Assembly: GCA_041389085.1 (NCBI GenBank)
Contig: JAWKSL010000002.1
Span: forward strand, 14,556-78,555
Length of the DNA stretch: 64,000 nucleotides
DNA from: Minisyncoccota bacterium
GTDB taxonomy: Bacteria > Patescibacteriota > Minisyncoccia > UBA6257 > 1-14-0-10-44-23
Direction of reading: 5' to 3'
The notes under the pieces were generated by a model. The model saw only the letters and a program-made list of their open reading frames with translations, was not told the origin of the DNA and did not search any database. The first letter of the stretch is position 1. The number at the start of each line of letters is the position of its first letter. Of the stretch, positions 3,197-60,032 are shown in pieces. The position numbers were made by a program, and so were the translations under genes.

Positions 3197-3634
3197 TGAA
3201 TTAAGAATACAGAATCAGGAATGATTTTAGATGTTAGATTTTGGATTTTAGAATATAGTCCTAGAGTAAGAATAATGAATAAAGAATAACCACGTCACCG
3301 CTTCAAACATAAATATAAACGCGATTTCCTACAAGTTTACCTCTATGATCGATCATAGAGGTAAGAGGGGGCTTTCGAGCGTAAAACTACGCGAAGAGGA
3401 AGAGGTGATTTTTTTGAAGATAAAAAGAAGAAACCCCGCACTCTGCCGTTGGCAAAGCGCGGGGCTCGAACTAGTGAAGGTGGGGGAAACCTCTTGGAGA
3501 AAAGGGGAAATTCGTGTGGAATGAGAAGGAGGTTTGACGCTATTGAGCAACCCCCACCTTCTCTATCATTATAACATATACGCTATATTTGTCAATAGGT
3601 AGGGATTTGGGGTGGTTTTGGTATGATTTAGATA

Positions 3635-5032
3635 GTGAATTTGGCTCATAGGTTTTTTGTAGCCTTAGTTTTGTTTTTGTGCGGAGTTTTTGTTGCTAGT
3701 TTTCTATCTCAATGGGGCAGTGCCCCTCTTTTTATATTAATTTTGAGTATTCTTCTTGCAGCGCTTTGCTATTTCTTTTCGTTGAGGTGGATGGCTATTC
3801 TGTTTATATTCTTCCTTCTCGGTGGTCAGTACTACCTTTTTGACGATAGGGCGTATCGGGCAAAGGAAATTGATTTTTCTAGTACTGAGTTTTCTGGCGA
3901 AGTTGTGCGGTATGAATATAAGCTTCGCAGCCAGGAGTTTGATGTTGTTTTAGATAGTGGCGCTAAGGTGCGTGTATATAGTGGCGTGGCTCCAAAGGTT
4001 TTTTATAAAGATAGAGTTTCTTTGTTTGGAGAAGCCTTGCCCCTTTCTTCTAATAGTGTGCGGTACTTTGAAAAGGAGGGAGTGAGTGCGACTATGGCTT
4101 TCCCTGAAGTGTCCATTTTAGGCTCCTCAGATTCTTTCCTTGGCGGTTTGTACAAATTTTCTGATCTCGTTTCTGCCCGCTTTGATCGATTTATTGGCGG
4201 GCAGGCTGGTGCGTTTATGGCTGGTATAACCTTAGGGACTGACTCTCGATTTTCTTCTGATCTTAAGCGTAAACTTTCTCTTACGGGTACTACGCATATC
4301 GTTGCTCTTTCGGGATACAACATTAGCATTATCGCCCTTTCTATTTCTTTATTAGCTTCTCGCTTTCTAAGATTGCGCGGAGCGTTTATTGCAAGCGTGG
4401 TTGCTATCTGTTTGTTTGTGCTTATGACTGGGGCGAGTGCAAGTGTGGTGAGGGCGGGGATAATGGGCATGCTAGTACTTTTGGCAAACCAGTTGGGTCG
4501 AGTTTACTCACTTCGAAACGCAATCGCCTTTAGCGCATTTTTGATGGTGCTTGTTAACCCTAAAGTTCTTGTGTTTGACCTTGGGTTTCAGCTCTCATTT
4601 TTAGCACTTATTGGAATAGTGTATTTTTCTCCGGTGATTAAAGGAGTGCTTGGGTTTGCTTCCGACAAAATTTCTATTGTGAAGGAAAGCTTAGCTATGA
4701 CTCTTGCTGCTCAGCTTGCGGTGATGCCACTGATTCTTTTCCAGTTTGGCTTTGTTCCAGTTTTTTCTATCTTTGCCAACGTACTCATTCTTACTTTTAT
4801 CCCACTTACTATGCTTTTGGGGCTTTTTATCTTTCTATTTAGTTTTCTGTCTGCATATTTGGCAGAATTTTTTGGATTACTTAGCCGAATAATTATAGGC
4901 TATATATTTTTCGTGATCGATTTCTTTTCTCGCTTCAGCGTGCAACTTGAGCTTGGATTTTTCTCTATCGTGTTTATGATTGCTTCATTCACCGGGCTAT
5001 TTATGGTTTTATATAAACAACGCAGTATATGA
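3635..5032 (+). CDS. comEC: ComEC/Rec2 family DNA-uptake channel, membrane (competence) domain
   Basis: Polytopic membrane protein carrying the LSLTGTTHIVALSGYNISI competence-domain motif. GTG start. Confidence 0.8.
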   Translation: MNLAHRFFVALVLFLCGVFVASFLSQWGSAPLFILILSILLAALCYFFSLRWMAILFIFFLLGGQYYLFDDRAYRAKEIDFSSTEFSGEVVRYEYKLRSQEFDVVLDSGAKVRVYSGVAPKVFYKDRVSLFGEALPLSSNSVRYFEKEGVSATMAFPEVSILGSSDSFLGGLYKFSDLVSARFDRFIGGQAGAFMAGITLGTDSRFSSDLKRKLSLTGTTHIVALSGYNISIIALSISLLASRFLRLRGAFIASVVAICLFVLMTGASASVVRAGIMGMLVLLANQLGRVYSLRNAIAFSAFLMVLVNPKVLVFDLGFQLSFLALIGIVYFSPVIKGVLGFASDKISIVKESLAMTLAAQLAVMPLILFQFGFVPVFSIFANVLILTFIPLTMLLGLFIFLFSFLSAYLAEFFGLLSRIIIGYIFFVIDFFSRFSVQLELGFFSIVFMIASFTGLFMVLYKQRSI

Positions 5033-19417: not shown

Positions 19418-19501
19418 GCGTAGGTACCGAAGTGGTCAAACGGGACTGGCTGTAGACCAGTTGGCTTTATGCCTTCGGGGGTTCGAATCCCTCCCTGCGC
19501 A
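19418..19501 (+). tRNA. tRNA-Tyr (anticodon GTA), type II with long variable arm
   Basis: Manual fold: acceptor GCGTAGG/CCTGCGC, 3-bp D stem, anticodon stem ACTGG/CCAGT with loop CTGTAGA, T arm GGGGGTTCGAATCCCTC. CCA not encoded. Confidence 0.85.
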
Positions 19502-19633
19502 CTGCTTCGCAAAATAAATAGCAACTCTTGAAAGAGTTGCTATTTATTTTAGCTTCGCAGTGCTTTGCACAAGAGCGTCGCGAACAGTGTACTGCGTAGC
19601 CTTGGCGAAGCAGTAGTCTGTTAAAGTAGTTGT

Positions 19634-19876
19634 ATGTACTATGTTTACATTATCGAAAGCCTAAAAGATCAGACTCGATACGTCGGTCATACATCTCATA
19701 CACCCAGCAAGAGACTTGATGAGCATAATCGTGGCTTAAATGCTTACACTAAGGCTCGTGCTCCTTACAAAATTGTTTGGTATGGTGCTTTTTTAGAGAA
19801 ACAAAAAGCTAAGGCTTTCGAAGAGTACTTAAAGCATGGCTCTGGCCATGCTTTTGCGAAGAAGAGACTTGTATAG
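19634..19876 (+). CDS. GIY-YIG nuclease superfamily protein (stand-alone domain)
   Basis: MYYVYIIESLKDQTRYVGHTSHTPSKRLDEHN is the canonical GIY..YIG..R..EH signature. Confidence 0.7.
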   Translation: MYYVYIIESLKDQTRYVGHTSHTPSKRLDEHNRGLNAYTKARAPYKIVWYGAFLEKQKAKAFEEYLKHGSGHAFAKKRLV

Positions 19877-19988
19877 GTAAATCCCTACCTACCGGCAGGC
19901 CTCCTTCTGCGCACTATAAAAATGAAAGTGACCCACGACGATCTCCAGAACACCTGGAGTTTTTCTCGTCGCGGGTCGTGCCCCAACC

Positions 19989-20264
19989 TTACGCGCATGG
20001 ATCTCCTCCTCGTTGGAAGTGCGCGATGTAGTAGTCGACAACCGTGTCGCAGTGGGCCTTGCGCTGACCCGCCTTTTCGCGCCCTGCAAGGTTCATGTCT
20101 GCGAGCTGCCTATCTACCACGTCTTGGCCGTAACCCTTCACATCGTTGACAAGGATCCAGACCACAACGCTCATGCGGTCTAGACCCATCGCAATCATCT
20201 CCTGAATGCGGTCAAGGATGAGCTTAGGGTCGATGTTCTCCCTCCCGTTTAGGTGTTGTGCCAA
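19989..20264 (-). CDS. hypothetical protein encoded in a short GC-rich island; TTG start after GGAGG
   Basis: ORF preceded by an RBS. Local GC content is clearly higher than in neighbouring genes. No family recognised. Confidence 0.3.
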   Translation of the reverse strand: MAQHLNGRENIDPKLILDRIQEMIAMGLDRMSVVVWILVNDVKGYGQDVVDRQLADMNLAGREKAGQRKAHCDTVVDYYIAHFQRGGDPCA

Positions 20265-20391
20265 TTGGCACCTCCTTTCACGGGGGTCCTATTTATAGAA
20301 ATAGCATAAATTCACGAATGTGCAAATCCTGAGCCGACTAACTGACTTGAGCATTGTATCTTTCGTTTATCCTTGTTACCATTCTTCCTAT

Positions 20392-21828: not shown

Positions 21829-21831
21829 GGT

Positions 21832-21865
21832 TTCAACGGCTCACACATACGTGTGAGCCGTTGAA
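21832..21865. repeat. 34-bp perfect palindrome ttcaacggctcacacATACgtgtgagccgttgaa; member of a dispersed element family (second copy at 50818..50853)
   Basis: Near-identical palindrome is present at both loci, each adjacent to a tRNA gene. Confidence 0.7.
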
Positions 21866-21881
21866 ATTAGGGGCAATTTCT

Positions 21882-46890: not shown

Positions 46891-48117
46891 ATGAAGCCCT
46901 TTCTAAGAATGTTTTCTATAGCTATGAGTGCCATTCGCTCGCAAATGAGTCGAAGCGTTTTGACGATGCTTGGGATAGTTATCGGCATTATGCTGGTGAC
47001 TATTGTTATGAGCGTTGGTGCAGCTGTAGAAGCCTTTATTATTGGCCAGGTAGAAAGCTTTGGAAGCGACGTTATATCTGTAGAGGTGCGCGCTCCCGGG
47101 CTTGGAAACGCTGGCGTGGGGATAGTCGTCACTACGATGAAGATAGCGGATGCTACGGCTATCGCTAAGCTTCCCGATGTGGACGAAACATATGCTGGCT
47201 ACTTAAGCCAAGCTGCTGTATCGGTAGATGGGCGTATAAAGAAGGCAAATCTTTTTGGTGTGAGCGAGGCGTACGTGAGAATAGACGATGCGCCTATAGC
47301 TCAGGGGCGATTTTTCTCTGAAGATGAAGACCGTTCGCTATCGCGCGTTGTTGTTTTGGGTAGCGAGATAGCGGAAACATTTTTCCCTTCCGGAAACGCG
47401 GTTTCAAACTCGATTAAAATAGACGGAAGCAACTATCGAATTATTGGTGTGTTTGAGCCACGTGGGGCTGCTGGTTTTTTTGATCGCGACAATATAGTAG
47501 TTATGCCAGTGCAGACTTTGCAGAGCCAAATAGCTGGAGTGGACTACGTATCGTTCATCGTGGCGAACTTGAACGATGCTGATAAGGCACTTCGGGCAAA
47601 AGCTGACATAGAGGAGCTGATGCGTGTGCGCCACAAGATATCTTCACCTGATAGAGACGACTTTGCAGTGTTTACTATTCAGGAAGCCAGGGAGCTCACC
47701 GGAACTATTTTGTTTGGTTTGCAAATTTTGCTTCTCGCCTTGGCGAGTATATCGCTTGTAGTAGGAGGGGTGGGAATTATGAACATTATGTACGTCAGTG
47801 TTTCGGAGCGTACGTTTGAAATAGGGCTTAGAAAGGCTATTGGAGCTCGGTATAAAGACGTGCTTTTGCAGTTTCTTATCGAGGCGAGTGTTTTGACTCT
47901 TTTGGGCGGAATAATTGGCATAGCGCTTGGAATAGGGGTTTCTTACTTGGCTTCAGTCTTTGCTCAGAAAGCAGGCTTTGACTGGCAGTTTATCGTTGGA
48001 TTTGGATCTATATTTGTAGCCCTTGGGTTTTCTATGGCCGTTGGCATTATCTTCGGACTCGCCCCTGCTAAAAAAGCTGCGAAACTTGAGCCTATAACGG
48101 CTTTGCGCTACGAATAG
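46891..48117 (+). CDS. ABC transporter permease (FtsX/MacB-like), second paralog
   Basis: Same architecture; GVGIMNIMYVSVSERT. Confidence 0.85.
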   Translation: MKPFLRMFSIAMSAIRSQMSRSVLTMLGIVIGIMLVTIVMSVGAAVEAFIIGQVESFGSDVISVEVRAPGLGNAGVGIVVTTMKIADATAIAKLPDVDETYAGYLSQAAVSVDGRIKKANLFGVSEAYVRIDDAPIAQGRFFSEDEDRSLSRVVVLGSEIAETFFPSGNAVSNSIKIDGSNYRIIGVFEPRGAAGFFDRDNIVVMPVQTLQSQIAGVDYVSFIVANLNDADKALRAKADIEELMRVRHKISSPDRDDFAVFTIQEARELTGTILFGLQILLLALASISLVVGGVGIMNIMYVSVSERTFEIGLRKAIGARYKDVLLQFLIEASVLTLLGGIIGIALGIGVSYLASVFAQKAGFDWQFIVGFGSIFVALGFSMAVGIIFGLAPAKKAAKLEPITALRYE

Positions 48118-48140
48118 CCGCTCTGATATACTGAGGGCAT

Positions 48141-49106
48141 ATGAAAAATATCAATACCGCAAGAGATTTCTTTTTGTATCTTTTTGCGACTGTGGCTGCT
48201 ATCTTTAGCGCCGTAAACATTATCGTATTGCTCTGGCAATACATAAATTATTTCTTCCCAGCTCCGTTTAGCTACTATTACGACGGGGTGAGTGGAGCTA
48301 TGAGATTTTCCATCTCAAGCTTAATCATCATCTTCCCACTCTACGTGTGGGTGATGTGGAGTCTTGGAAAAGACATCGATAGGCACCCTGAAAAGAAAGA
48401 CTTCTGGGTGCGCAAGTGGCTTATCTACATAACGCTTTTTGTAGCAGCGATGACCATGATTGTAGACTTGGTTGTTGTACTTAACACTTTCCTTGGCGGA
48501 GACTTTGCCGCTCGCTTTGTATTGAAGGCGCTTGCAGTGCTTGTTGTAGCGGCTGCGGTGTTTTCTTACTACACCTTCAACTTGAAGCGTGAGAGTGGGA
48601 AAGGACTTTCTACTCGAAAGACAATTGCTTGGGTGTCTTCAACAGTGCTTCTTGCTTTGATCGTTGGTGCATTCTTCATCGTAGGTAGCCCTGCGACAAG
48701 CCAAGACAAGCAGCTTGATAGCGAGCGTGTAGCCCACTTGAGCCAAATACAGTGGCAGGTGCTCGACCACTGGCGCCAGTCTGACGTACTTCCAGAAACT
48801 CTCGATGAGCTTAACGATCCTATAATTGGATTTGAAACTCCACGCGATCCAGAGACTCGCGAAGACTACGAATACACTAAGACTTCTGACCTTAGCTTCG
48901 AGCTCTGCGCTACCTTTGCAAGCGAGAGCCGAGACTTCGATCCTGAAGCCACCGATAGCTACGACGAGCGCGCAGCTATCGATTCTGGTGCCTACTATGG
49001 TGGGTATGAAGATTCTCGCTTCTGGCAACACGGAGAAGGAAGAACTTGCTTCGAGAGAACGATAGACCCTGAGAAGCACGCAGCTCCAAAGCCAGTTTAC
49101 TACTAG
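48141..49106 (+). CDS. DUF5671-like membrane protein
   Basis: Four N-terminal TM helices plus an acidic C-terminal extracytoplasmic region. The family call is tentative. Confidence 0.45.
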   Translation: MKNINTARDFFLYLFATVAAIFSAVNIIVLLWQYINYFFPAPFSYYYDGVSGAMRFSISSLIIIFPLYVWVMWSLGKDIDRHPEKKDFWVRKWLIYITLFVAAMTMIVDLVVVLNTFLGGDFAARFVLKALAVLVVAAAVFSYYTFNLKRESGKGLSTRKTIAWVSSTVLLALIVGAFFIVGSPATSQDKQLDSERVAHLSQIQWQVLDHWRQSDVLPETLDELNDPIIGFETPRDPETREDYEYTKTSDLSFELCATFASESRDFDPEATDSYDERAAIDSGAYYGGYEDSRFWQHGEGRTCFERTIDPEKHAAPKPVYY

Positions 49107-49157
49107 TATAAAAATGCTGAGAGCCGCCAACCCTAACGGGATGGCGGCTCTTTGCGT

Positions 49158-50042
49158 TCAGGCGAGCTCTCGTACAGGCGCGGCGGTGAGCCGAATCTGC
49201 ATGCGCTTGCTGCGCATCTTGATGTTTTTGGTGATGCCGAACCACTGGAGGGTCCAGATGAGGTAGCCTGTTGTGTCTACCTGCCACCATTTTTCGCCTT
49301 GGAACATCCACCACTTCTCATGGTGATGGTTGTTGTGCCAGCCCTCGCCACCCACAAGGAGCGCGAGGAGGAAGCTGTTGCGACTGGTGTCTTTCGTCTG
49401 GTAGGGACGCTTGCCCCAGAGGTGTGCCAGAGTGTTGATGGTGCTGGTAGCCTCTCCGAGCACTGCGGTGCTCAGGAAGAAAGAAATCAGCAAGCAACTC
49501 CACCCTCCGTAGAGGTAGCACGCTAGGCCCAGAAGGGCGAAGGGTACTATCTGTAGCCTCTCGAGCCACATGAGCTCGGGGAACTTGGCGAAGTCGGGGA
49601 TCTTCTTCTTGTAGTCGAGCTTGGGCCACCTGCTCAAGAACCAGCCCCACTGAGCGTAGGCAAAGCCGTGCTGAGTCGGGGAGTGCTTGTCGATGGGCTC
49701 GTCGCTGTTCCTGTGGTGGTCGCGATGTTCAGCTGCCCACCAAAGCGGGCCCTTTTGCATCGCGGTGCAACAGATCGCTCCCAGAACGAATTGAGAGAAG
49801 CGCTGGAAGCGCAACTCGTAGGTTCGGTGTGAGAAGTAGCGATGAAGACCGCCGGCTACCGCAAGCGCGCGTACGCGCCAGAGGATGAAGCCAAGCAGGT
49901 AGTCGCGCCAGCTTGCGTCGATGACGCCAGTAGCGTGAAGGACGATGCCCAGAACACCGAGAGTCTTCACGAGGAGGAACCCGATGGTGGTAGGGCTGAG
50001 CCAGTCGACCTTGGGCCGAGCAGCGTTTGTCGCCGTAGTCAT
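49158..50042 (-). CDS. acyl-lipid/acyl-CoA delta-9-type fatty acid desaturase
   Basis: Three His boxes HRYFSH, HRDHHRNSDEP and HNNHHHEKW. Strongly GC-rich relative to the rest of the window. Confidence 0.85.
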   Translation of the reverse strand: MTTATNAARPKVDWLSPTTIGFLLVKTLGVLGIVLHATGVIDASWRDYLLGFILWRVRALAVAGGLHRYFSHRTYELRFQRFSQFVLGAICCTAMQKGPLWWAAEHRDHHRNSDEPIDKHSPTQHGFAYAQWGWFLSRWPKLDYKKKIPDFAKFPELMWLERLQIVPFALLGLACYLYGGWSCLLISFFLSTAVLGEATSTINTLAHLWGKRPYQTKDTSRNSFLLALLVGGEGWHNNHHHEKWWMFQGEKWWQVDTTGYLIWTLQWFGITKNIKMRSKRMQIRLTAAPVRELA

Positions 50043-50111
50043 TTACTGACCTCTCTTTCGGCCTTTGGCCAGTGGTGCAAGGGGAATTCCTTACCCCTCT
50101 AGATTAGCACG

Positions 50112-50739
50112 TTAGCGTTTTCGAATGTAAGGCTTGACTGGTATGAGGAAACAAGACCCTATAAGGGAGATAGCGACTACTGCACCGATCAGGATTGGGA
50201 AGCCTTGGTTTGTCGCTATATACCCTCCGACTGCTGCAAAGGCTGCGCTGGTGATGTCGGTAAGAGTAAAGTAAACGCCCCACTCAACTCCTTCTTTTGC
50301 TCTGTCGATATGGCGGGTAAACATAGCCATGTAGGTAGGGAAGGTGAAGGCAGTGAAAATTCCGTAGATAAACTGCACGAGGTAAAGCTCTCCTGGGGTG
50401 TCGACGATGAGGTAGGTGAGTGGCATAAGGGAAATAAGGAAGGTAAAAACTATCATGAGCCAGAAGTCGTCTTTCTCGCCACGAATTTTGTCGATGATGT
50501 GAGCTATCGGAATTTGTAAAATGCTTTTGGTGAATAGGAAGATGGCAGCGGAAATTCCGGCTACTTCCGCGCTTCCGCCAACGATAAAGTCTTCAACAAA
50601 GAGTGCGAAGATAGGGCCTTAGGAGTCCTGAGGCACCGATGAGGATGGTGTCGGACATAATAAGGAAGCGCACTACGGGGTTTATATCGGCAAGGAAGTA
50701 GTGCATTTTTGATACTGCACGCTTTGTATGGTGGTTCAT
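50112..50739 (-). pseudogene. MFS transporter remnant: only about half a transporter, with a +1 frameshift
   Basis: MNHH...IMSDTILIGASGLL in one frame continues as GPIFALFVEDFIVGG...LIPVKPYIRKR in another. About 215 aa across 6 TM, against roughly 400 aa expected. Confidence 0.5.
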
Positions 50740-50776
50740 ATAGCTTCATTATAGGGCAGGTTTTACCCTGCCTAAA

Positions 50777-50980
50777 TTTAACGGCTCACAAACTCCAAGG
50801 AAGTACCGAATCGCGAAGTTTAACGGCTCACACGTACGTGTGAGCCGTTAAACTGGCTAGGCATCCCCAGTCTTGGCTGTCTTTCGCCCTTGCGGGCTCA
50901 AGACGAAGACTGAGAAGCCGTTAAAAGGATTGCCTAGAATGCAGTATTTATGCCTATTCTGTCCGTGTGAGCCGTTTAAC
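50777..50980. repeat. MITE-like element of about 205 bp bounded by 14-bp terminal inverted repeats (tttaacggctcaca / tgtgagccgtttaa). It contains the 36-bp palindrome gtttaacggctcacacgtacgtgtgagccgttaaac (50818..50853), also seen at 21832..21865.
   Basis: Direct sequence comparison; lies immediately upstream of tRNA-Ser(TGA). Confidence 0.55.
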
Positions 50981-51016
50981 TTGATTCTTATCTCTTAATT
51001 CTATATTCTAGTCCTA

Positions 51017-51107
51017 TTGGAGAGGTGGCTGAGTGGTCGAAGGCGGCTGTCTTGAAAACAGTTGGGGGTTCATAGCCTCCCGTGGGTTCGAATCCCACCC
51101 TCTCCGC
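51017..51107 (+). tRNA. tRNA-Ser (anticodon TGA), type II, CCA encoded
   Basis: Acceptor GGAGAGG/CCTCTCC, anticodon stem GCTGT/ACAGT with loop CTTGAAA, long variable arm, T arm GTGGGTTCGAATCCCAC. Confidence 0.9.
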
Positions 51108-51685
51108 CAAAGTCGAGATCCGAGCGCCCCTTGGGATCTGTTTTCTGTGGATAACTCATCTTGTATTAGCTTTTACTTTTTGTATAATATATATGAACGG
51201 TATGTTCTTTGAAATCAATTGTGTAGAAGTGGTTATTGCTTCGGAGATATAGATAGCTTAGCTTTAAGCTATTTGACGCCTCCTAGATTTGGGAGGGGAT
51301 TTCGCTCCTGGCATCCTTACTAGAGTCTCTCTAGAGTAGTAAGAGATGTCGAAGAGGGGCGATTTTAGGCAACAGAAGCATTTAAAAAAAATGATTGTTT
51401 GTCGGGACTACCCATAACTGCGGTTATTGGTACTACCGGAAGGTTGATCGAACTAATAACCGCGCGAATGGGTGTGTCCAAATATTATTATAAATATAAC
51501 CGTTCACCTTAATATAGAACTATCATGAAACACCTGATTAAAAGAACTGCACAACTGTACCTTCCGTATGACGGGGCGGCTGAATTAAAGCATGAAATTT
51601 TTCAGGGCTTTGTGAATACTACTTCAAGTAGTACGTATCCTGCGAGATTTGCTTTGCTAGCCGCCTCGTAGTTGTTTTTTATATT

Positions 51686-52012
51686 ATGTATTCTTTCCCA
51701 GAGTTGATTAAGAGAATTAGAAATGAGGCCAACCTTACACAGGTTGAATTTGCGAAGGCTCTAAATGTCTCAACTATCCTTGTTTCAATGGTCGAGACTG
51801 GCCAAAAGGAGGTTTCAAAGAAATTTCTTCTTCGACTTGCTGAGAGTTTAAATGTTCATCCGTCGTCTATTACCCCTTTTCTTTTTACTGAAGAAGGTGC
51901 TTCTATTGACCAACTTTCTACTATAGAAAGAAAATTTGTTGTGTGGGGTGAGAGAATGCAGGATTATTTAATACGAGATCGAGCACATCTTTTGCGCCAG
52001 TATGCGAATTAG
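51686..52012 (+). CDS. XRE-family helix-turn-helix protein
   Basis: ELIKRIRNEANLTQVEFAKALNVSTILVSMVETGQKEVS is the canonical Cro/C1-type HTH. Overlaps the RT gene by 11 nt. Confidence 0.7.
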   Translation: MYSFPELIKRIRNEANLTQVEFAKALNVSTILVSMVETGQKEVSKKFLLRLAESLNVHPSSITPFLFTEEGASIDQLSTIERKFVVWGERMQDYLIRDRAHLLRQYAN

Positions 52013-53003
52013 ACGGTACCCTAAGCTGGGGATAAGAAGCAAAAATGAGCTCGCAAAGCGCTTAAGTCACAAAAATTTTTCTACAAAAAATTCTCTTGCC
52101 CTTGTGAATGACGTTATTTCTAATTTCGATTTTTATTGGCATGACAATAAAAAGGAGTCAAATCCTCAAAAAAAGAAATATGTGCGCAGTGCAAAGTATA
52201 GCCCACTAGGAAAATTACTTACTAAAATTAACTCTAGAATTCTTGCTCCTTACGACAAGCTATTGCCAGGATTTATCTTTGGAGGCGTTCAGGGATTAAA
52301 CCATAAAGCGGCAGTGGCTTATCTCCTTGGGCAAAAAAGAAAGCGAGTTCTTTTGAAGGTGGATATCTCTAGGTTTTTTGAACAGATTAAAGATGAGAGG
52401 GTTTTCGATTTTTTTAAGCATAAGTGTGAATGTGGGGTGAGAGGGGCCAAGCTTTTAGCTAGTTTGTGTACCGTTCCCATTGGTCCTAAAAACTTTCCTA
52501 CGTCACATATCAGGACTATTGCTCGTGGCTTTGCTACGTCTCCTCGTCTCGCAATCTGGTGCAATTTAGACACTTTTATTAAACTTGACCGTCTTATTCG
52601 CACTGAATTGCGTGGTAAGGATCCGAGAATTGCAATTTATGTTGATGATATAGGCGTGACTGCAAGCAGAGTTTCAGTTGAGCAAATGGCTCTTCTTTAC
52701 AAAAAAATCGAAAAATTACTCCAGGAGGATAGAAATCAGGGCCTGCCACTTAATGCAGAGAAAACAAGAATAATAGAGCATACTGGGAAAACTTTTGACG
52801 GAAATGGTGTATTAATAACTAGTGAGTGGGGCTATGAGCACTTAGGGGCGCAAATGAAAAGAAATTCCTTAACGATTGGGAAAAAGACAAAAGCAAAATT
52901 AATTGATGTGACACAGAAGTGGGAGCGTGGTGAAGGTGGTATGCTGGTTAAGCTTCGTCGCAAAGCTTTATTGCGTCATAAGAGGTACATGGAGTCGGCT
53001 TAA
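52002..53003 (+). CDS. reverse transcriptase, 333 aa, RT domain only; retron-/Abi-/defence-associated type
   Basis: RT motifs in order: motif 1/2 YVRSAKYSPLGKLLTKINSRIL and PGFIFGGVQGLNHKAAVAY; motif A LLKVDISRFFEQI; motif B ARGFATSPRLAIWCN; motif C IAIYVDDIGV; motif D/E GLPLNAEKTRII. No maturase or endonuclease extension. Confidence 0.75.
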   Translation: MRIRRYPKLGIRSKNELAKRLSHKNFSTKNSLALVNDVISNFDFYWHDNKKESNPQKKKYVRSAKYSPLGKLLTKINSRILAPYDKLLPGFIFGGVQGLNHKAAVAYLLGQKRKRVLLKVDISRFFEQIKDERVFDFFKHKCECGVRGAKLLASLCTVPIGPKNFPTSHIRTIARGFATSPRLAIWCNLDTFIKLDRLIRTELRGKDPRIAIYVDDIGVTASRVSVEQMALLYKKIEKLLQEDRNQGLPLNAEKTRIIEHTGKTFDGNGVLITSEWGYEHLGAQMKRNSLTIGKKTKAKLIDVTQKWERGEGGMLVKLRRKALLRHKRYMESA

Positions 53004-53012
53004 TCAATACAA

Positions 53013-53040
53013 AAAAGGCCCTTGCGGGCCTTTTTAGTTT
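53013..53040. terminator. bidirectional terminator aaaaaaggcccttgcgggccttttt; the same hairpin recurs at 54475 and 55927
   Basis: Perfect hairpin with flanking A- and T-runs. Confidence 0.6.
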
Positions 53041-53162
53041 TCTTAGAGGTACTCGTTGATGGGACTTTGATTTTATTGTCAGTTTTAATAGCTGTGGTAG
53101 GATCTTTTTAGTTCATTTCACCCCGAAATTAGTTTCGGGTCAAACCACGAAAGTGAGGCACT

Positions 53163-54417
53163 ATGCGTACTGCACTTGCAGCTTTCCTTGTAGTTCTGTG
53201 TAGCCTTTGGGCTGCCGCAGCGGCTGTTGCCGATCCGGTGACGGTGCGTGTGAAGAGCAACGATGGCTCCTACTCATACGTGACGCGAGACCTTCCAGCT
53301 TCGAGCTGTGAGGTTTGGACCATCGATTTTCGGCGCGATGACGGAACGATTTGGGGCAGTGAATCTGCCCGGCCCGATCGCGCTGGCGTCGAAGATCGGG
53401 CAGCGAAGTACAACAACTTCCTGAGTTGGATCGGACAATCTCGGGAAGTCGAAGTCGAAGGAGCACTACAACAACCCCTCTCCTGCGTACTGTTCGGTTT
53501 TCAGTAGTGATACTGCAATGCTGGACAAGTTGCGTGGAGACGGGGAGGTGAATTTTCCATTCAAGACGTTGGCAAAAGCTCAGAATGAGGTCTTGGAAAG
53601 GATCCGAAACTATGTGGCAGGGGCAAGGACCTACTACGAGCAGTTCAAAGCTGCTCCCGGGCGGTCTTTCATGGAGTACGGGCGAGTCTTGGCTGACGGA
53701 ATGGCTAAGACGCAGAAGATTGAGCAGGAGCTGCTCACGCCCGCTCTGAGGTTGCCATTTGAGGTGATGAATCCCGATGGTTTTGCTCCTTTCCTAACTG
53801 GCATCGACGAGGAGGGTGTCACTTGGATGCGCTCTTGGGCTCGCGCAGTGCGAGCTGAGGAGCCGAGAATTCAGCAAGGGATTCGGACTATTCAGCAAGT
53901 GATGCGCGATAATCAAAAAGATGCACGCGAGAACTCTCGTGAGTATGACGCTGCAGTTGCTAGGATTGAGCGTCTTCGGCGCGACATCCGCAACGCCCGT
54001 GATCCTCGTATGATCGACATCCTTGAGAGGGATTTGGCGCGAGCCGAAGAGAAGCGTGACTACGCCATGGAAAGGCAATGGAGTTTTGATGAGCAGAGGG
54101 AGGCAAATGAAGAGCGAATCCGCAATCTGCGTGAGCGTGAGCTCGAGGTTCCCGAGAAGCTTTCGTTCATTCTTCAATTTTCCTACAGCTGTGGTTGCGC
54201 ACTGGAAGTGAGCGAGGTGTTTGAAGATGGCGATAGGGAGGGGGATGGTGTGGAGCGACTTAGCGATCGTTGCTCTGTATGTGGCGGTAGCGGTAAGGTT
54301 GATGTCATGGAGAACGGTGAGCTTTGGCGAGACTACATCAAGCGAATCCCAATCTCCGCGCGACCTCCGGCGCGGCGGATTACCTGCCCTGAGTGCGGTG
54401 GCACTGGCAAGCGGTGA
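53163..54417 (+). pseudogene. secreted protein with charged coiled-coil region and C-terminal DnaJ-type CxxCxGxG zinc-finger motifs, copy 1; frameshifted (split 53163..53507 and 53518..54417)
   Basis: N-terminal 45 aa are identical to copy 2. An insertion/duplication around 53400..53480 (KYNNF... versus EHYNNPSP) shifts the frame. C-terminus CSVCGGSGKV...CPECGGTGKR. Confidence 0.5.
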
Positions 54418-54474
54418 CCCACCTTGTGAGGCCTGGCGTTCTACGGAACGCCAGGCCTTTCGTTTTTTAATATC

Positions 54475-54765
54475 AAAAAAGGCCCTTGCGGGCCTTTTTA
54501 GTTTTCTTAGAGGTACTCGTTGATGGGACTTTGATTTTATTGTCAGTTTTAATAGCTGTGGTAGGATCTTTTTAGTTCATTTCACCCCGAAATTAGTTTC
54601 GGGTCAAACCACGAAAGTGAGGGCACTATGCGTACTGCACTTGCAGCTTTCCTTGTAGTTCTGTGTAGCCTTTGGGCTGCCGCAGCGGCTGTTGCCGATC
54701 CGGTGACGGTGCGTGTGAAGAGCAACGATGGCTCCTACTCATACGTGACGCGAGACCTCCCGGTC
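54475..54765 (+). repeat. about 290-bp near-identical direct repeat of 53013..53300, covering the terminator, the promoter region and the first about 45 codons
   Basis: Direct comparison. Both repeats include a truncated '...INEYL*' 3' gene end on the minus strand; an intact copy of that gene lies at 55967..56782. Confidence 0.8.
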
Positions 54766-55869
54766 TCAAGCTGTGTTCTCTGGACTGTCGACTTCCGTCG
54801 AGATGATGGAACAGTTTGGGGTAGCGAGTCTGACTCTGACAAGGCTAGGGTTGAAAAGAGGGCGGCAGCATCTCGCGCGTTTGTTAGTTTGATAGACGCT
54901 CTTGCGAAGTCTTCTTCACAAGAACACTATAACAACCCCTCTCCTATGTATTGCTCGGTTTTTAGTAGTGATACTAAGATCTTGGGTAAATTGGGTGGAG
55001 ATGGTGAGGGAAATTTTCCATTCAAGGTCTTTAGCAATGCCCGGGCCGATGTTCGTTCAAGAATTGTAAATTTTTCAACTGGCGTGCGAACTTACTACGA
55101 ACAGTTCAAGTCTGCTCCCGGGCGGTCTTTCATGGAGTATGGGCGCGCCTTGGTTGATGGAATGGCAAAGGTGCAGAAAATTGAGCAACAAATGCTGTCC
55201 CCATCTCTCAGCTTGCCGTTTGAGCTTACGAGCTCGAATGGCTTTGAGCCGTTCTTTATTGGACTCGACCGTGAGGGTACTGCGCGGATGCGTTCTTGGG
55301 CTCGTTCTATCCAAGGAGAGGAGGCGATCATCCAAAAGGAGATTGAGACTGTCCGGTGGGCAATGCGTGAAAACAAAAAGCTCGCCGGCCTCTACTCACG
55401 TGAGCATGATGTTGCGGTTGCGAAGATTGAGCGCCTTAGGCGCAGGCTGCGCTCGGAGCGCGATCCTGAAAGGATTGATGCTTTGAAGCAGGATTTAGAT
55501 CTCGCAATTGAAAAGCGTGATCGCGCTCTTGAGCGGCGCTGGGAGTTTGAACAGATTGAAGATGACGATGAGGAGAAGCTTTTCGATCTCCGTGCGCGCG
55601 AAGGTAAAATTCCTGATAGGCTTTCATTTGTTTCTAGTTTTGCTCGTAGCTGCGGCTTCGAGTTAGATGCTGAGACGGTCTTTGGTAGTCCCGACCCAGG
55701 TCAAGAAGCGAGCGGGGATAGTTGTCCTACCTGCAAAGGCACTGGACGAATTCATCCTCAACGTCGTTCTTCTTCGGACGATGCTCCTCCTGGCTCTAGT
55801 ACAGCCAGTCCTGCACTTTCGGAGTCTGGAGAAACTTGCCCCACATGCGGTGGCACTGGCAAGCGGTGA
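54628..55869 (+). CDS. secreted protein with charged coiled-coil region and two C-terminal CxxCxGxG zinc-finger motifs, copy 2, intact (413 aa)
   Basis: Signal peptide MRTALAAFLVVLCSLWAAAAAVA; ER/K-rich helical region; CPTCKGTGRI...CPTCGGTGKR. GC-rich. Confidence 0.55.
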   Translation: MRTALAAFLVVLCSLWAAAAAVADPVTVRVKSNDGSYSYVTRDLPVSSCVLWTVDFRRDDGTVWGSESDSDKARVEKRAAASRAFVSLIDALAKSSSQEHYNNPSPMYCSVFSSDTKILGKLGGDGEGNFPFKVFSNARADVRSRIVNFSTGVRTYYEQFKSAPGRSFMEYGRALVDGMAKVQKIEQQMLSPSLSLPFELTSSNGFEPFFIGLDREGTARMRSWARSIQGEEAIIQKEIETVRWAMRENKKLAGLYSREHDVAVAKIERLRRRLRSERDPERIDALKQDLDLAIEKRDRALERRWEFEQIEDDDEEKLFDLRAREGKIPDRLSFVSSFARSCGFELDAETVFGSPDPGQEASGDSCPTCKGTGRIHPQRRSSSDDAPPGSSTASPALSESGETCPTCGGTGKR

Positions 55870-55966
55870 CCCACCTTGTGAGGCCTGGCGTTCTACGGAA
55901 CGCCAGGCCTTTCGTTTTTTAATATCAAAAAAGGCCCTTGCGGGCCTTTTTAGTTTTCTTAGATTC

Positions 55967-56782
55967 TTAGAGGTACTCGTTGATGAGTTCTTCTATTGCT
56001 TCATTGAGGTAGTCGATTACGTCTTCTACTTCGTTGAAAGCTTGTGAGTAGTCGTTGTCGTCGAGCTCGTCCTCAGCATCGTCGAGTGCATCTTCTGCAT
56101 CTTCAAGTGAGTCTTCTGCATCGCGTACGTCTAGTCCGTAGTTGTCTGCATCATTTATCGCATCGTCTACGAAGTCGAGCATTTCTTCTGCAAAGTCGAT
56201 AGCGTCTTCAACAGCTGCTTCGTTTTTGCTGGTGCGTCCCTCTGTGTCTTCGATGTAGTCTTGAGTTAGCTCAGCTGCATCGCGAGCAAAGGTTGCTACA
56301 ACTTCTGCTTGGTAGTAGTCAGCGTCTCTGCGAGCGTCGTCTGCTTCATCTACCCAGTCCTGCGCGAAGTCCATTTGGTCTTCTGCAAGGTTGATCGCGT
56401 CGTTGAAGGTGTTCTCATCGTCTGCATCGTCTATCGCGTCTTCAAGGTCGTCGATAGCGTCTTCTGCATCTTCGATTGCATCTTCAGCAACTGCGTTGCT
56501 TGAGTTGTTGTATCCTGGCCCTACTGGAGTTACTACTGGTGGGTAGTAAGTAGGGTAGGTAGGATAGGTTGGATAATAGTTTTGGCTTTGAAGCGCTTGA
56601 ATTTGCGCCAAAAGCTGGTTGATCAACGCTTGAAGCTGTTGGATCTGCTCCTGCTCGTTTGAGTAGGTGTTGTAGGTAGGTGGGTATGCAACTATTGAAA
56701 GGGCTTGAGCTTTCCCTGCTGGAAGAGCAATAGAAAGAGCTGCCACTACCATCGCTGCAAACACTGATACTTTCTTAAACAT
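55967..56782 (-). CDS. secreted, extremely acidic repeat protein (EDAIDDAEDA-type repeats; PTY repeats)
   Basis: Signal peptide MFKKVSVFAAMVVAALSIALPAGKAQA, then YPTYPTY and a D/E/A-rich repetitive region. The 3' end lies inside the third copy of the repeat/terminator module. Confidence 0.5.
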   Translation of the reverse strand: MFKKVSVFAAMVVAALSIALPAGKAQALSIVAYPPTYNTYSNEQEQIQQLQALINQLLAQIQALQSQNYYPTYPTYPTYYPPVVTPVGPGYNNSSNAVAEDAIEDAEDAIDDLEDAIDDADDENTFNDAINLAEDQMDFAQDWVDEADDARRDADYYQAEVVATFARDAAELTQDYIEDTEGRTSKNEAAVEDAIDFAEEMLDFVDDAINDADNYGLDVRDAEDSLEDAEDALDDAEDELDDNDYSQAFNEVEDVIDYLNEAIEELINEYL

Positions 56783-59168: not shown

Positions 59169-60032
59169 GTGAAAATTTCTGAAAAATCCTTAGGAATTGT
59201 CGCTGGAGGTGGCGGAATGCGCTGCGCTTATAGTGCGGGTGTGCTTTACGCCTTAGCAAAGGAGCTTGAGCTTAAGGCGCCAAAATACCTGGTTGGAAGT
59301 AGCGGTACTGCAGCTACGGCTTTAATGTATGCGCTCAAGGAATATGAGCTTTTGAAGAGAGTGTGGATAAAAGACCTTTCTCTAGAAGAGCACCGCAGAC
59401 TTATTGCACGCTGGCGACTTTTAAAAATATTTGATGTGGACTATTTGGTAGATGAAATCATTAAGCCTTACGAGCGGCCAGCTCACGACAAAATTTTGCG
59501 TGAGAGCAGGACCAATCTTTTTCTCGCTGCTACCGGTGCGGACAATGGGCGTGTAGACTTTTTTGACGTACGAAAAGAGAAAAAGCACGCGGTGTATGAG
59601 ATACTTCGTGCCTCGAAAGCTATACCAGTAGCGTTTCGGCGCAAGGTCATGCTTGCTGGGCGGCGCTATGTAGACGGGGCTATTGGCGCACCGCTTGTAG
59701 ACAGTGTGCGTTTTCTTGAAGAGAAGGGGGCAAAGAACGTTTTAGTGATCAAAAATGAGTACGGTATACCGTTTACCAACAAAGTGATGTTTTGGATTTA
59801 CTCATGGCTCGTAAACAAGCGACTCGGGAAATCTATACGCCGCTACGTGCGACAAAATGATAGAGACATCCTTGCTCTTGAGGGAGTAAACGTTTTTATT
59901 CTTGAGCCAAGCCGTCGACTTAAGGCGAGCTCGCTCAGTTTGAAGCGAGAGAAGCTTGAAGACGCCTTTAACTTGGGAGTTTCAGACGTGAAAACGAGCG
60001 GGAGTTTGCACTCGTTTCTCGCGCATTTGTAG
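59169..60032 (+). CDS. patatin-like phospholipase
   Basis: Oxyanion motif GGGMRCAYSAGV and GSSGT nucleophile elbow (GxSxG). GTG start. Confidence 0.8.
   Translation: MKISEKSLGIVAGGGGMRCAYSAGVLYALAKELELKAPKYLVGSSGTAATALMYALKEYELLKRVWIKDLSLEEHRRLIARWRLLKIFDVDYLVDEIIKPYERPAHDKILRESRTNLFLAATGADNGRVDFFDVRKEKKHAVYEILRASKAIPVAFRRKVMLAGRRYVDGAIGAPLVDSVRFLEEKGAKNVLVIKNEYGIPFTNKVMFWIYSWLVNKRLGKSIRRYVRQNDRDILALEGVNVFILEPSRRLKASSLSLKREKLEDAFNLGVSDVKTSGSLHSFLAHL

Follow-up and report, generated by a model that had tools for sequence, protein, structure and literature searches.

A Δ9-type membrane fatty-acid desaturase gene, probably acquired as a single gene by horizontal transfer, in a Candidatus Paceibacterota genome

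Introduction

How does a gene for a membrane fatty-acid desaturase come to be in the genome of a tiny symbiotic CPR bacterium, and what could its product do there? By published accounts (for example PMC10031880), CPR bacteria cannot build their own membrane lipids, which are thought to be taken from hosts. The gene lies in a Candidatus Paceibacterota genome, in a 64-kb stretch of DNA that was analysed as a whole (the window) and whose gene content is typical of CPR. The original prediction for this locus was a recently acquired lipid-modifying island, in which the desaturase had arrived together with a fragment of an MFS transporter beside a MITE-like element and tRNA-Ser.

The best explanation as a whole, to which we assign a probability of about 0.8, is that the gene encodes a functional Δ9-type desaturase and was horizontally acquired as a single gene. 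The foreign gene, about 970 bp long, would have been inserted between the 3' ends of a native half-size MFS gene and a native DUF5671 gene (Table 1). The transfer is an ordinary single-gene event, with no lipid island.

Table 1. Features of the desaturase locus, in window coordinates
Feature	Position	Strand	Basis or remark
DUF5671 membrane protein gene, native, convergent with the desaturase	48141..49106	+	Pfam PF18920, 85 bits
Imperfect 21-nt inverted repeat (hairpin)	49113..49158		Between the DUF5671 and desaturase stop codons
GC-rich block, extent of compositionally foreign DNA	49115..50084		Likelihood change-point, 200-nt GC profile
Δ9/SCD-type membrane fatty-acid desaturase gene	49158..50042	-	294 aa, intact
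Spacer from MFS stop to desaturase start, 69 nt	50043..50111	-	Read from the sequence
Native half-size MFS transporter gene, 6-TM, 208 aa	50112..50739	-	Frame analysis, alignment to sister contig L001
REP-like palindromic repeat cluster, TTTAACGGCTCACAC / GTGTGAGCCGTTAAA	50774..50982		Includes a perfect 19+19 palindrome, 50817-50854
tRNA-Ser(UGA), divergent from the MFS gene	51019..51109	+	ARAGORN; Rfam tRNA, 58.5 bits

The desaturase and its predicted activity

The desaturase belongs to the membrane-bound fatty-acid desaturase superfamily, since it passes the curated cutoff of Pfam FA_desaturase (PF00487; 62.2 bits against 29.7, residues 45-241). The three His boxes noted in the original prediction are all present in the order HX4H, HX2HH, HX2HH (HRYFSH at 67, HRDHH at 106 and HNNHH at 236), and they align with the boxes of mammalian SCD1. 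Outside the boxes, H120 (in DKHSP) and N203 and H207 (in NTLAH) align to the SCD1 motifs DPHN and NSAAH, and presumably have the metal-ligand roles that these residues have in the SCD1 structures. In a 60-sequence alignment of homologues, H67, H72, H106, H109, H110, H120, N203, H207, H236, H239 and H240 are all invariant.

SCD1 is the sole solved relative found with phmmer (4ymk, E 3.9e-26 over residues 10-280). An AF2 model of the desaturase (pLDDT 90.2, pTM 0.87) is matched by Foldseek to the SCD1 structures 4YMK, 6WF2 and 4ZYO (E 2e-12, TM 0.81, rmsd ~3.3 Å over ~294 columns), with the next matches at TM 0.44 or below. On this predicted model, we are confident that the protein has the four-TM "mushroom" fold of SCD1. 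It differs from SCD1 in sequence (~28% identity), in lacking the eukaryotic N-terminal extension, and in its electron donor, which must be another one because cytochrome b5 and b5-reductase are absent in bacteria.

The protein also resembles bacterial and cyanobacterial Δ9 desaturases (the acyl-lipid DesC, and the acyl-CoA or phospholipid enzymes of Acinetobacter, Pseudomonas and Ralstonia) in its motifs and its size, DesC-like proteins having ~275-320 aa. Plasmid-borne genes annotated as desC1, acyl-CoA desaturase or Δ9 acyl-phospholipid desaturase are 36-40% identical to it, and no match in the plasmid collection exceeds 40% identity. Most of the top matches are named stearoyl-CoA (Δ9) desaturase by JGI. 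Unlike these bacterial enzymes, it is not an NCBIfam DesA equivalog (NF049918; 75.2 bits against a cutoff of 400), and its host is a CPR bacterium without lipid synthesis.

The gene product would be an acyl desaturase of the Δ9/stearoyl-CoA-desaturase type with four helices, a di-iron centre and a requirement for O2, receiving electrons from a small redox carrier of the ferredoxin or flavodoxin type encoded elsewhere. Most likely it would put a cis double bond into scavenged saturated C16/C18 acyl chains, probably chains already esterified in phospholipids, and so may allow an organism without fatty-acid synthesis to tune the fluidity of its membrane where the habitat is oxic or cold. The data show the fold, the metal ligands, the selection on the gene, its foreign composition, its insertion context and its patchy distribution; we infer the Δ9 regiospecificity, the form of the substrate (lipid or CoA), the electron donor, the physiological role and the donor lineage.

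Two points count against this reading of the function. The 64-kb window shows no gene for an electron donor, an acyl-CoA synthetase or an acyltransferase. An anaerobic life is assumed for many CPR, and an O2-dependent enzyme would be useless there. In the Pseudomonas desBC and Mycobacterium desA3/Rv3230c pairs an oxidoreductase adjoins the desaturase, which is not so for the window gene.

A different chemistry within the superfamily (another regiospecificity, a hydroxylase or a ketolase) or an inactive relic is unlikely. Regiospecificity is unreadable from sequence, and both the low DesA equivalog score and the lack of a redox partner in the window are compatible with another activity. On the other side, SCD/Δ9-type proteins supply all of the best matches in sequence and fold, and Δ9 enzymes share the spacing of the His boxes as well as the motifs GEGWHNNHH and NxxxH. 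As for a relic, the dN/dS of 0.084 against the sister strain speaks against it and suggests that the intact gene is under purifying selection.

Foreign composition and origin of the desaturase

The desaturase is much more GC-rich than its surroundings, as originally noted. It has a GC of 0.591 and a GC3 of 0.769, whereas the 39 other ORFs of the window have a GC3 of 0.440 ± 0.060 with a maximum of 0.587 (z = 5.5), and its Karlin codon-bias distance is the top value in the window (z = 3.3). A two-boundary likelihood change-point over 47000-52000 delimits a block with a GC of 0.592, against 0.455 outside, which corresponds to the desaturase gene alone. Around this block there is no trace of an integrase or a transposase, nor of flanking repeats, direct or inverted, and the stretch from 48141 to 51019 contains no mobility genes; this lack of a mobility signature counts against the best explanation.

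At the same junctions, the desaturase is shared with one sister strain only, at 91% nucleotide identity. In fetched flanks of up to ±10 kb (many contigs being shorter), there is no desaturase near DUF5671 at 17 GTDB loci or near the half-size MFS gene at 57 JGI loci, and it is also absent from the corresponding neighbourhoods of 3 further CPR loci. The 17 GTDB DUF5671 loci (37-47% identity) have no neighbours in common with the window, and synteny is equally lacking around the DUF5671 proteins that come next in similarity (55% identity). The collections hold no intermediate relatives of the window's lineage, so the time of acquisition is bounded by the sister strain only. The desaturase gene bears the marks of horizontal transfer, being atypical in composition, patchy in distribution and missing from the orthologous site in relatives, and to this extent the original prediction is borne out.

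Apart from the copy in the sister strain, the closest homologues reach no more than 53% identity to the desaturase, and the best outside relatives about 50%, a distance much too great for a recent donor, which counts against the best explanation. The top outside homologues (P0013, P0006 and P0003) lie on contigs of 70-71% GC with free-living gene content. The neighbour-joining tree groups the desaturase with a CPR desaturase, L024 H2, in 31 of 60 bootstraps, so that a transfer within CPR or an older residence of the gene in CPR is possible, another point against the best explanation. The ~70%-GC carriers of the best outside relatives are soil bacteria.

Other Patescibacteria contigs (L024, L092 and L027) also carry fatty-acid desaturases, and in at least two of them the gene is similar to the window gene, GC-enriched, and located elsewhere. 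The trait is therefore patchy in Patescibacteria and not unique, and its presence in a CPR host that lacks lipid synthesis is less unexpected than first claimed. L024 H2, on a Harrisonbacteria-like contig, and the P0008 homologue on the Patescibacteria contig L092 share the subfamily (42-47% identity) and are likewise single genes with a GC3 above that of their neighbours (0.73 and 0.70). They differ in lying in unrelated contexts, and they are no closer to the window desaturase than non-CPR homologues are. Judged from these comparisons, the three genes are probably separate acquisitions.

Comparison of two sequences, the window and the sister strain, gives a dS of 0.158 for the desaturase, 0.29 for the 3' part of the MFS gene, 0.64 for its 5' part, 0.70 for DUF5671 and 0.69 for FtsX (Fisher p for a recombination signal, 5e-12 and 8e-8). 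The desaturase and the adjoining MFS 3' part are far less diverged than the flanks, which suggests that homologous recombination has moved this segment, a candidate tract at about 49045-50470, from one related strain to another since their divergence.

These data also bear on the idea that the desaturase is an old gene, vertically inherited or passed within CPR, with a high GC3 that is gene-specific and not a mark of recent transfer. The raised GC3 of the same-type genes on L024 and L092 would fit such a history, as would the weak grouping with L024 H2, and the low dS could reflect constraint at synonymous sites. Yet the three CPR desaturases, 42-47% identical among themselves, resemble one another no more than they resemble genes of 70%-GC bacteria, they share no context, and the gene is absent from the homologous site everywhere else that was sampled. 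No known mechanism would raise the GC3 of one gene in a small genome by 30 points above the genome. An old gene is unlikely.

The neighbouring half-size MFS gene

The MFS gene lies directly upstream of the desaturase on the same strand. Its frame in this assembly is broken by a 1-nt insertion near 50620, and the ORF is intact in sister contig L001; the NCBI annotation (P0244) covers the downstream 166 aa only. The repaired protein matches only the first half of Pfam MFS_1 (up to position ~176 of 347), which corresponds to the N-terminal six-helix half of a canonical 12-TM MFS protein. It differs from the canonical form, which has two six-helix halves and ~400 aa, in being conserved at its full length of ~205 aa and 6 TM across CPR, and by inference would need to pair up as a dimer to work.

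Proteins of this family have 203-218 aa and ~70% identity across many CPR classes. The gene has a host-like GC of 0.475 and a dN/dS of 0.02 against the sister strain, and tRNA-Ser is a recurrent upstream neighbour of the half-size gene (in L027, L029, L031 and ~17 of the 57 JGI loci). For these reasons the ~205-aa MFS is a native conserved CPR family, not the debris of a decayed transporter. The original description of a half-length, frameshifted fragment was right about the half length, the frameshift and the position upstream on the same strand, but the length is that of the orthologues, and the frameshift is the gene's sole departure from them. If the MFS gene and the desaturase are co-transcribed, the frameshift could have polar effects, which counts against the best explanation.

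The proposal of a horizontally acquired lipid-modifying island beside tRNA-Ser, with the desaturase and an MFS remnant (one half of a 12-TM protein, in decay) brought in as a unit, is very improbable and already largely refuted. It drew on the adjacency and shared strand of the two genes and on the tRNA and repeats nearby; the low-divergence block, moreover, reaches into the MFS 3' part, and on one other CPR contig, L027, a desaturase is likewise found near the half-size MFS gene and tRNA-Ser. Against this, the MFS family is CPR-wide, the gene has a host-like GC and a low dN/dS, none of the 57 half-size MFS loci has a desaturase nearby, and the L027 desaturase is of a different type (30% identical), on the other side of the MFS gene and in the opposite orientation. 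The compositional boundary leaves the MFS gene out, and the foreign block holds one gene. The locus has no integrase, transposase or att-type flanking repeats of a tRNA-associated genomic island, and the desaturase is on the 5' side of tRNA-Ser with the native MFS gene between them.

A chimeric contig or a mis-binned fragment from a GC-rich organism, which the abrupt composition jump and the lack of a record for the exact desaturase and DUF5671 proteins in the contig look-up might suggest, is hardly credible, given that independent Logan assemblies of the sister strain from five runs have the same MFS-desaturase-DUF5671-FtsX order with junction spacers 94-96% identical.

Implications for lipid use in CPR

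The desaturase is itself a conventional enzyme, and its transfer a conventional event. If maintained as an O2-dependent activity, it would mean that some CPR can still edit stolen lipids and live where oxygen is available, and its foreign composition could point to the donor lineage, possibly that of the host. A wider proposal is that high-GC bacteria, possibly the hosts themselves, serve as a recurrent source of single GC-rich Δ9-desaturase genes for CPR/Patescibacteria, that the enzymes desaturate host-derived phospholipids in place, and that the genes spread among related CPR strains by homologous recombination. We regard this as doubtful at present; if true, a desaturase would mark an oxic lifestyle as well as the host or donor lineage. 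The literature searched yielded no description of fatty-acid desaturases in CPR/Patescibacteria and no citation of the SRA run; the desaturase in PMC9948471 is a carotenoid desaturase. The correction of the MFS gene matters for annotation, in that the ~205-aa form is a conserved CPR family.

Intergenic features and repeats

A functional linkage between half-size MFS genes and desaturases had been suggested by two of the first four loci (the window and L027), and was rejected when no desaturase was found in the flanks of the 57 JGI loci.

In NCBI, the DUF5671 protein has a counterpart of 100% identity, P0124, from a Candidatus Paceibacterota MAG, and P0244, the annotated part of the MFS protein, bears the name Candidatus Paceibacterota as well. 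The hairpin between DUF5671 and the desaturase (I1) is 81% complementary with a 4-nt loop, and is a probable bidirectional terminator for the two convergent genes, a putative function. In the spacer upstream of the desaturase, which is 94% identical in the sister strain, GAGAGG stands 7 nt before the ATG (50050-50055; CCTCTC on the + strand). No sigma-70-like promoter was found in this spacer, and a promoter and terminator scan around the desaturase gave nothing over the shuffled background.

The repeats and tRNA-Ser(UGA) beyond the MFS gene are present as predicted, but the MITE reading of the repeats is doubtful: they are short REP-like palindromes with no target-site duplication seen. The inverted arms of the cluster are 17-22 nt long, at 50774/50816 and 50961-50982. 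The palindromic repeat TGTGAGCCGTT and its complement have 6 matches, against 0.05 expected by chance. The motif occurs at one other site in the 64 kb, as a bare palindrome at 21831-21866 just upstream of tRNA-Trp.

Desaturase gene and predicted enzyme

The only solved structures matched by the desaturase are the mouse and human stearoyl-CoA desaturases (phmmer, E 3.9e-26 and 5.9e-25, residues 10-280). Its His boxes supply H67 and H72 (HRYFSH), H106, H109 and H110 (HRDHH) and H236, H239 and H240 (HNNHH), along with the further residues H120, N203 and H207 (NTLAH), and all of these are invariant across a 60-sequence alignment and present in the window protein. An AlphaFold2 model made from this alignment (mean pLDDT 90.2, pTM 0.87) gives TM-scores of 0.80-0.81 against 4YMK, 6WF2 and 4ZYO, while subsequent PDB matches score 0.44 or less. 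Most close homologues carry the JGI name stearoyl-CoA (Δ9) desaturase, and plasmid-borne relatives with 36-40% identity are annotated as acyl-CoA desaturase, desC1 or Δ9 acyl-phospholipid desaturase. By fold and ligands the protein is classed as a Δ9/SCD-type desaturase, with a predicted regiospecificity and substrate. It scores 75 bits against the NCBIfam DesA equivalog, below the threshold of 400. A GAGAGG motif lies 7 nt ahead of the ATG. A promoter and terminator scan of the locus gave nothing above background, and the gene may be transcribed by read-through from the MFS gene or from an unrecognised promoter within the 69-nt spacer.

Features of the desaturase locus and its surroundings (window positions unless contig L024 is named)
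Feature	Position	Strand	Match or remark
Desaturase ORF	49158-50042	-	294 aa; Pfam FA_desaturase, 62 bits (cutoff 29.7)
3' hairpin of desaturase	49113-49158		Inverted-repeat search
GC-rich block	49115-50084		GC 0.592 within, 0.455 outside (two-boundary likelihood scan)
DUF5671 gene, 3' half	48620-49106	+	Abuts desaturase; dS 1.19, dN 0.058 (5' half, dS 0.41)
MFS-like gene	50112-50739	-	Directly upstream of desaturase, same strand; frame broken once
Palindromic repeat cluster	50774-50982		Between MFS start and tRNA-Ser
Perfect 19+19 palindrome	50817-50854		Within the cluster
Other copy of palindrome	21831-21866		37 nt ahead of tRNA-Trp
tRNA-Ser(UGA)	51019-51109	+	
Candidate type VI retron	51230-53003	+	3' side of tRNA-Ser
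Structured non-coding stretch	51230-51530		MFE -101.7 kcal/mol, z -5.9
HTH protein of candidate retron	51686-52012	+	PADLOC HTH_VI, 46.5 bits
Reverse transcriptase of candidate retron	52002-53003	+	Overlaps HTH gene; RT_VI, 84.7 bits; NCBIfam retron St85 RT, weak
GC-enriched block	53000-56000		GC 0.51-0.52
Patatin-like phospholipase	59169-60032	+	Pfam PF01734, 70.6 bits; about 9 kb from desaturase
L024 FA_desaturase gene	3558-4457	+	<10 kb from L024 DUF5671 gene
L024 FA_desaturase gene	19483-20304	-	<10 kb from L024 DUF5671 gene

Composition, distribution and origin

The desaturase has a GC content of 0.591 and a GC3 of 0.769, against 0.440 ± 0.060 (maximum 0.587) for the 39 other window ORFs (z = 5.5), and no other ORF departs as far in codon usage from the remainder of the window (z = 3.3). 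The original prediction had described a gene with all three His boxes and far richer in GC than those around it, and both points hold, the desaturase being the strongest outlier in the proposed comparison of GC and codon usage. From its boundaries, the GC-rich block consists of the ORF, its 3' hairpin and a leader of about 40 nt, and nothing else. The neighbours are host-like in composition (MFS GC 0.475, DUF5671 GC 0.473).

The sole close relative, P0001 (97% amino acid identity), is found in the sister strain, which keeps the gene order MFS-desaturase-DUF5671-FtsX with spacers 94-96% identical. A chimeric contig is ruled out by this agreement, since the sister strain was assembled independently, from five SRA runs whose contigs (L001-L005) are mutually identical. 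Neither a desaturase nor shared neighbours occur at 17 GTDB DUF5671 loci (37-47% identity; fetched flanks up to ±10 kb, several contigs shorter), and none of 57 JGI loci has a desaturase near the half-size MFS gene (fetched flanks up to 10 kb per side, many contigs just 1-6 kb). One of three further half-MFS loci (L027/L028) has a desaturase, 30% identical, beyond tRNA-Ser and in the opposite orientation. The outlying composition, the synteny found only in the sister strain and the absence from the 17 and 57 loci agree with the predicted horizontal acquisition. The original observation is confirmed and its interpretation partly supported: the desaturase is probably a horizontally acquired, functional single gene, and desaturases are not unique to this CPR lineage.

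The remaining homologues are at most 53% identical. The desaturases P0013, P0006 and P0003 (GC3 about 0.93) lie on contigs of 70-71% GC, with neighbours including aconitase, KdpD, rhamnosidase and HpaB. P0008 lies on a contig of 47% GC and its NusG clusters at at least 90% identity with a 'Patescibacteria group bacterium' protein, and the Harrisonbacteria-like contig L024 carries two desaturases, one of which (H2) shares 42% identity with the window desaturase. GC3 exceeds that of the neighbours in P0008 (0.70) and H2 (0.73). Together with the L027/L028 gene, these indicate that desaturases are patchy yet recurrent in Patescibacteria, and to call such an enzyme unexpected in this host overstates the case. 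A distance tree puts the window gene next to H2 in no more than 31 of its 60 bootstraps and points to no particular donor lineage. The L024 desaturases adjoin ATP-citrate-lyase-like or succinyl-CoA-ligase-like genes, and one has a GC3 of 0.73 on a contig of 0.52 GC.

The MFS neighbour and tRNA-linked repeats

The MFS gene had been called a half-length, frameshifted fragment. The frame is indeed broken in the window copy, which has one extra base near 50620, but a length of 208 aa is normal for the family, and the sister strain has an uninterrupted ORF of that size. A search with the 208-aa protein returned hundreds of proteins; the best 120, of 203-247 aa, share 67-75% identity with it and have names from Magasanikbacteria, Giovannonibacteria, Yanofskybacteria, Harrisonbacteria, Brennerbacteria, Niyogibacteria, Microgenomates and others. 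The dN/dS between the two strains is 0.02, and tRNA-Ser lies just upstream of the half-size gene in contigs L027, L029 and L031 and at about 17 of the 57 JGI loci. The intact sister ORF, conserved length, low dN/dS and recurrent tRNA-Ser all point to a native, conserved, half-size (6-TM) transporter that is full-length for its family. Its sole anomaly is the frameshift, which may be a real mutation or an assembly error. That a half transporter should be conserved so strongly (about 205 aa, about 70% identity, many CPR classes) suggests that its function is important and that it acts as an obligate dimer. In NCBI, P0244 is the annotation of the window gene's 3' part and lies on the same contig as P0124. 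The anticodons of the tRNA-Ser genes preceding half-MFS genes vary across CPR.

No integrase or transposase lies between DUF5671 and tRNA-Ser, and the GC-rich block has neither direct nor inverted repeats on its two sides. With a foreign block of one gene and a native MFS neighbour, the proposed acquired island of both genes falls away. The desaturase is on the 5' side of tRNA-Ser.

The repeat cluster ahead of tRNA-Ser contains TGTGAGCCGTT and its complement. Apart from the copy near tRNA-Trp there is none elsewhere in the 64 kb (6 matches, 0.05 expected), and the palindrome TTTMAACGGCTCACAC...GTGTGAGCCGTTKAAA lies a short way ahead of both the tRNA-Trp and the tRNA-Ser gene. Sister-strain contigs stop inside or near it, as a dispersed repeat would predict. 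A REP-like element is one possible identity, a site regulating tRNA genes another.

Selection and probable recombination

The desaturase has a dN/dS of 0.084 against the sister strain and is therefore maintained. Its dS is 0.158, compared with 0.70 for the whole DUF5671 gene, 0.69 for the FtsX permease, and 0.64 and 0.29 for the 5' and 3' parts of the MFS gene (contrasts along the region, Fisher p 5e-12 and 8e-8). In a sliding window, divergence is 1-6% from about 49045 to about 50470 and 10-23% outside. When a gene is GC-rich and the genome around it leans towards AT, synonymous changes should build up faster, not slower. On the simplest reading of the two sequences, the last common ancestor of this segment in the two strains is younger than that of its flanks, which would mean that homologous recombination carried it between them. 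The diverged 3' half of DUF5671 beside it suggests a recombination breakpoint or a fast-evolving extracellular domain.

Host context and possible variable region

The DUF5671 protein is 100% identical to P0124, 'MAG: DUF5671 domain-containing protein [Candidatus Paceibacterota bacterium]', an NCBI protein encoded on a contig of 88,330 bp. Other window genes encode ComEC, F-type ATP synthase, SecA, LepA, S2, EF-Ts, a MacAB-like pump and a patatin-like phospholipase, and many ORFs have no family match; this content is consistent with a CPR genome. CPR genomes have been reported to lack membrane-lipid synthesis (PMC10031880). The enzyme would be a di-iron, O2-dependent desaturase with four helices embedded in the membrane. 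Drawing electrons from a carrier of ferredoxin or flavodoxin type whose gene lies elsewhere, it would turn saturated acyl chains (C16/C18) into monoenes with a cis-Δ9 double bond. Because no fatty-acid or acyl-CoA metabolism is evident within the window, phospholipid-bound chains are a somewhat likelier substrate than acyl-CoA. The phospholipase plausibly serves lipid scavenging or remodelling in the same genome, and the desaturase would benefit the cell by letting it adjust membrane fluidity with lipids it has scavenged.

Beyond tRNA-Ser, the candidate retron occupies a low-GC (0.39) block. The strongly structured stretch ahead of its HTH and reverse transcriptase genes has no Rfam match and could be the msr-msd RNA. 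In the GC-enriched block that follows, searches of Pfam, NCBIfam and PADLOC gave no significant family for ORFs 53163-53507, 53518-54417 and 54628-55869. As a whole, the DNA between tRNA-Ser and about 56 kb resembles a variable region of mosaic make-up.
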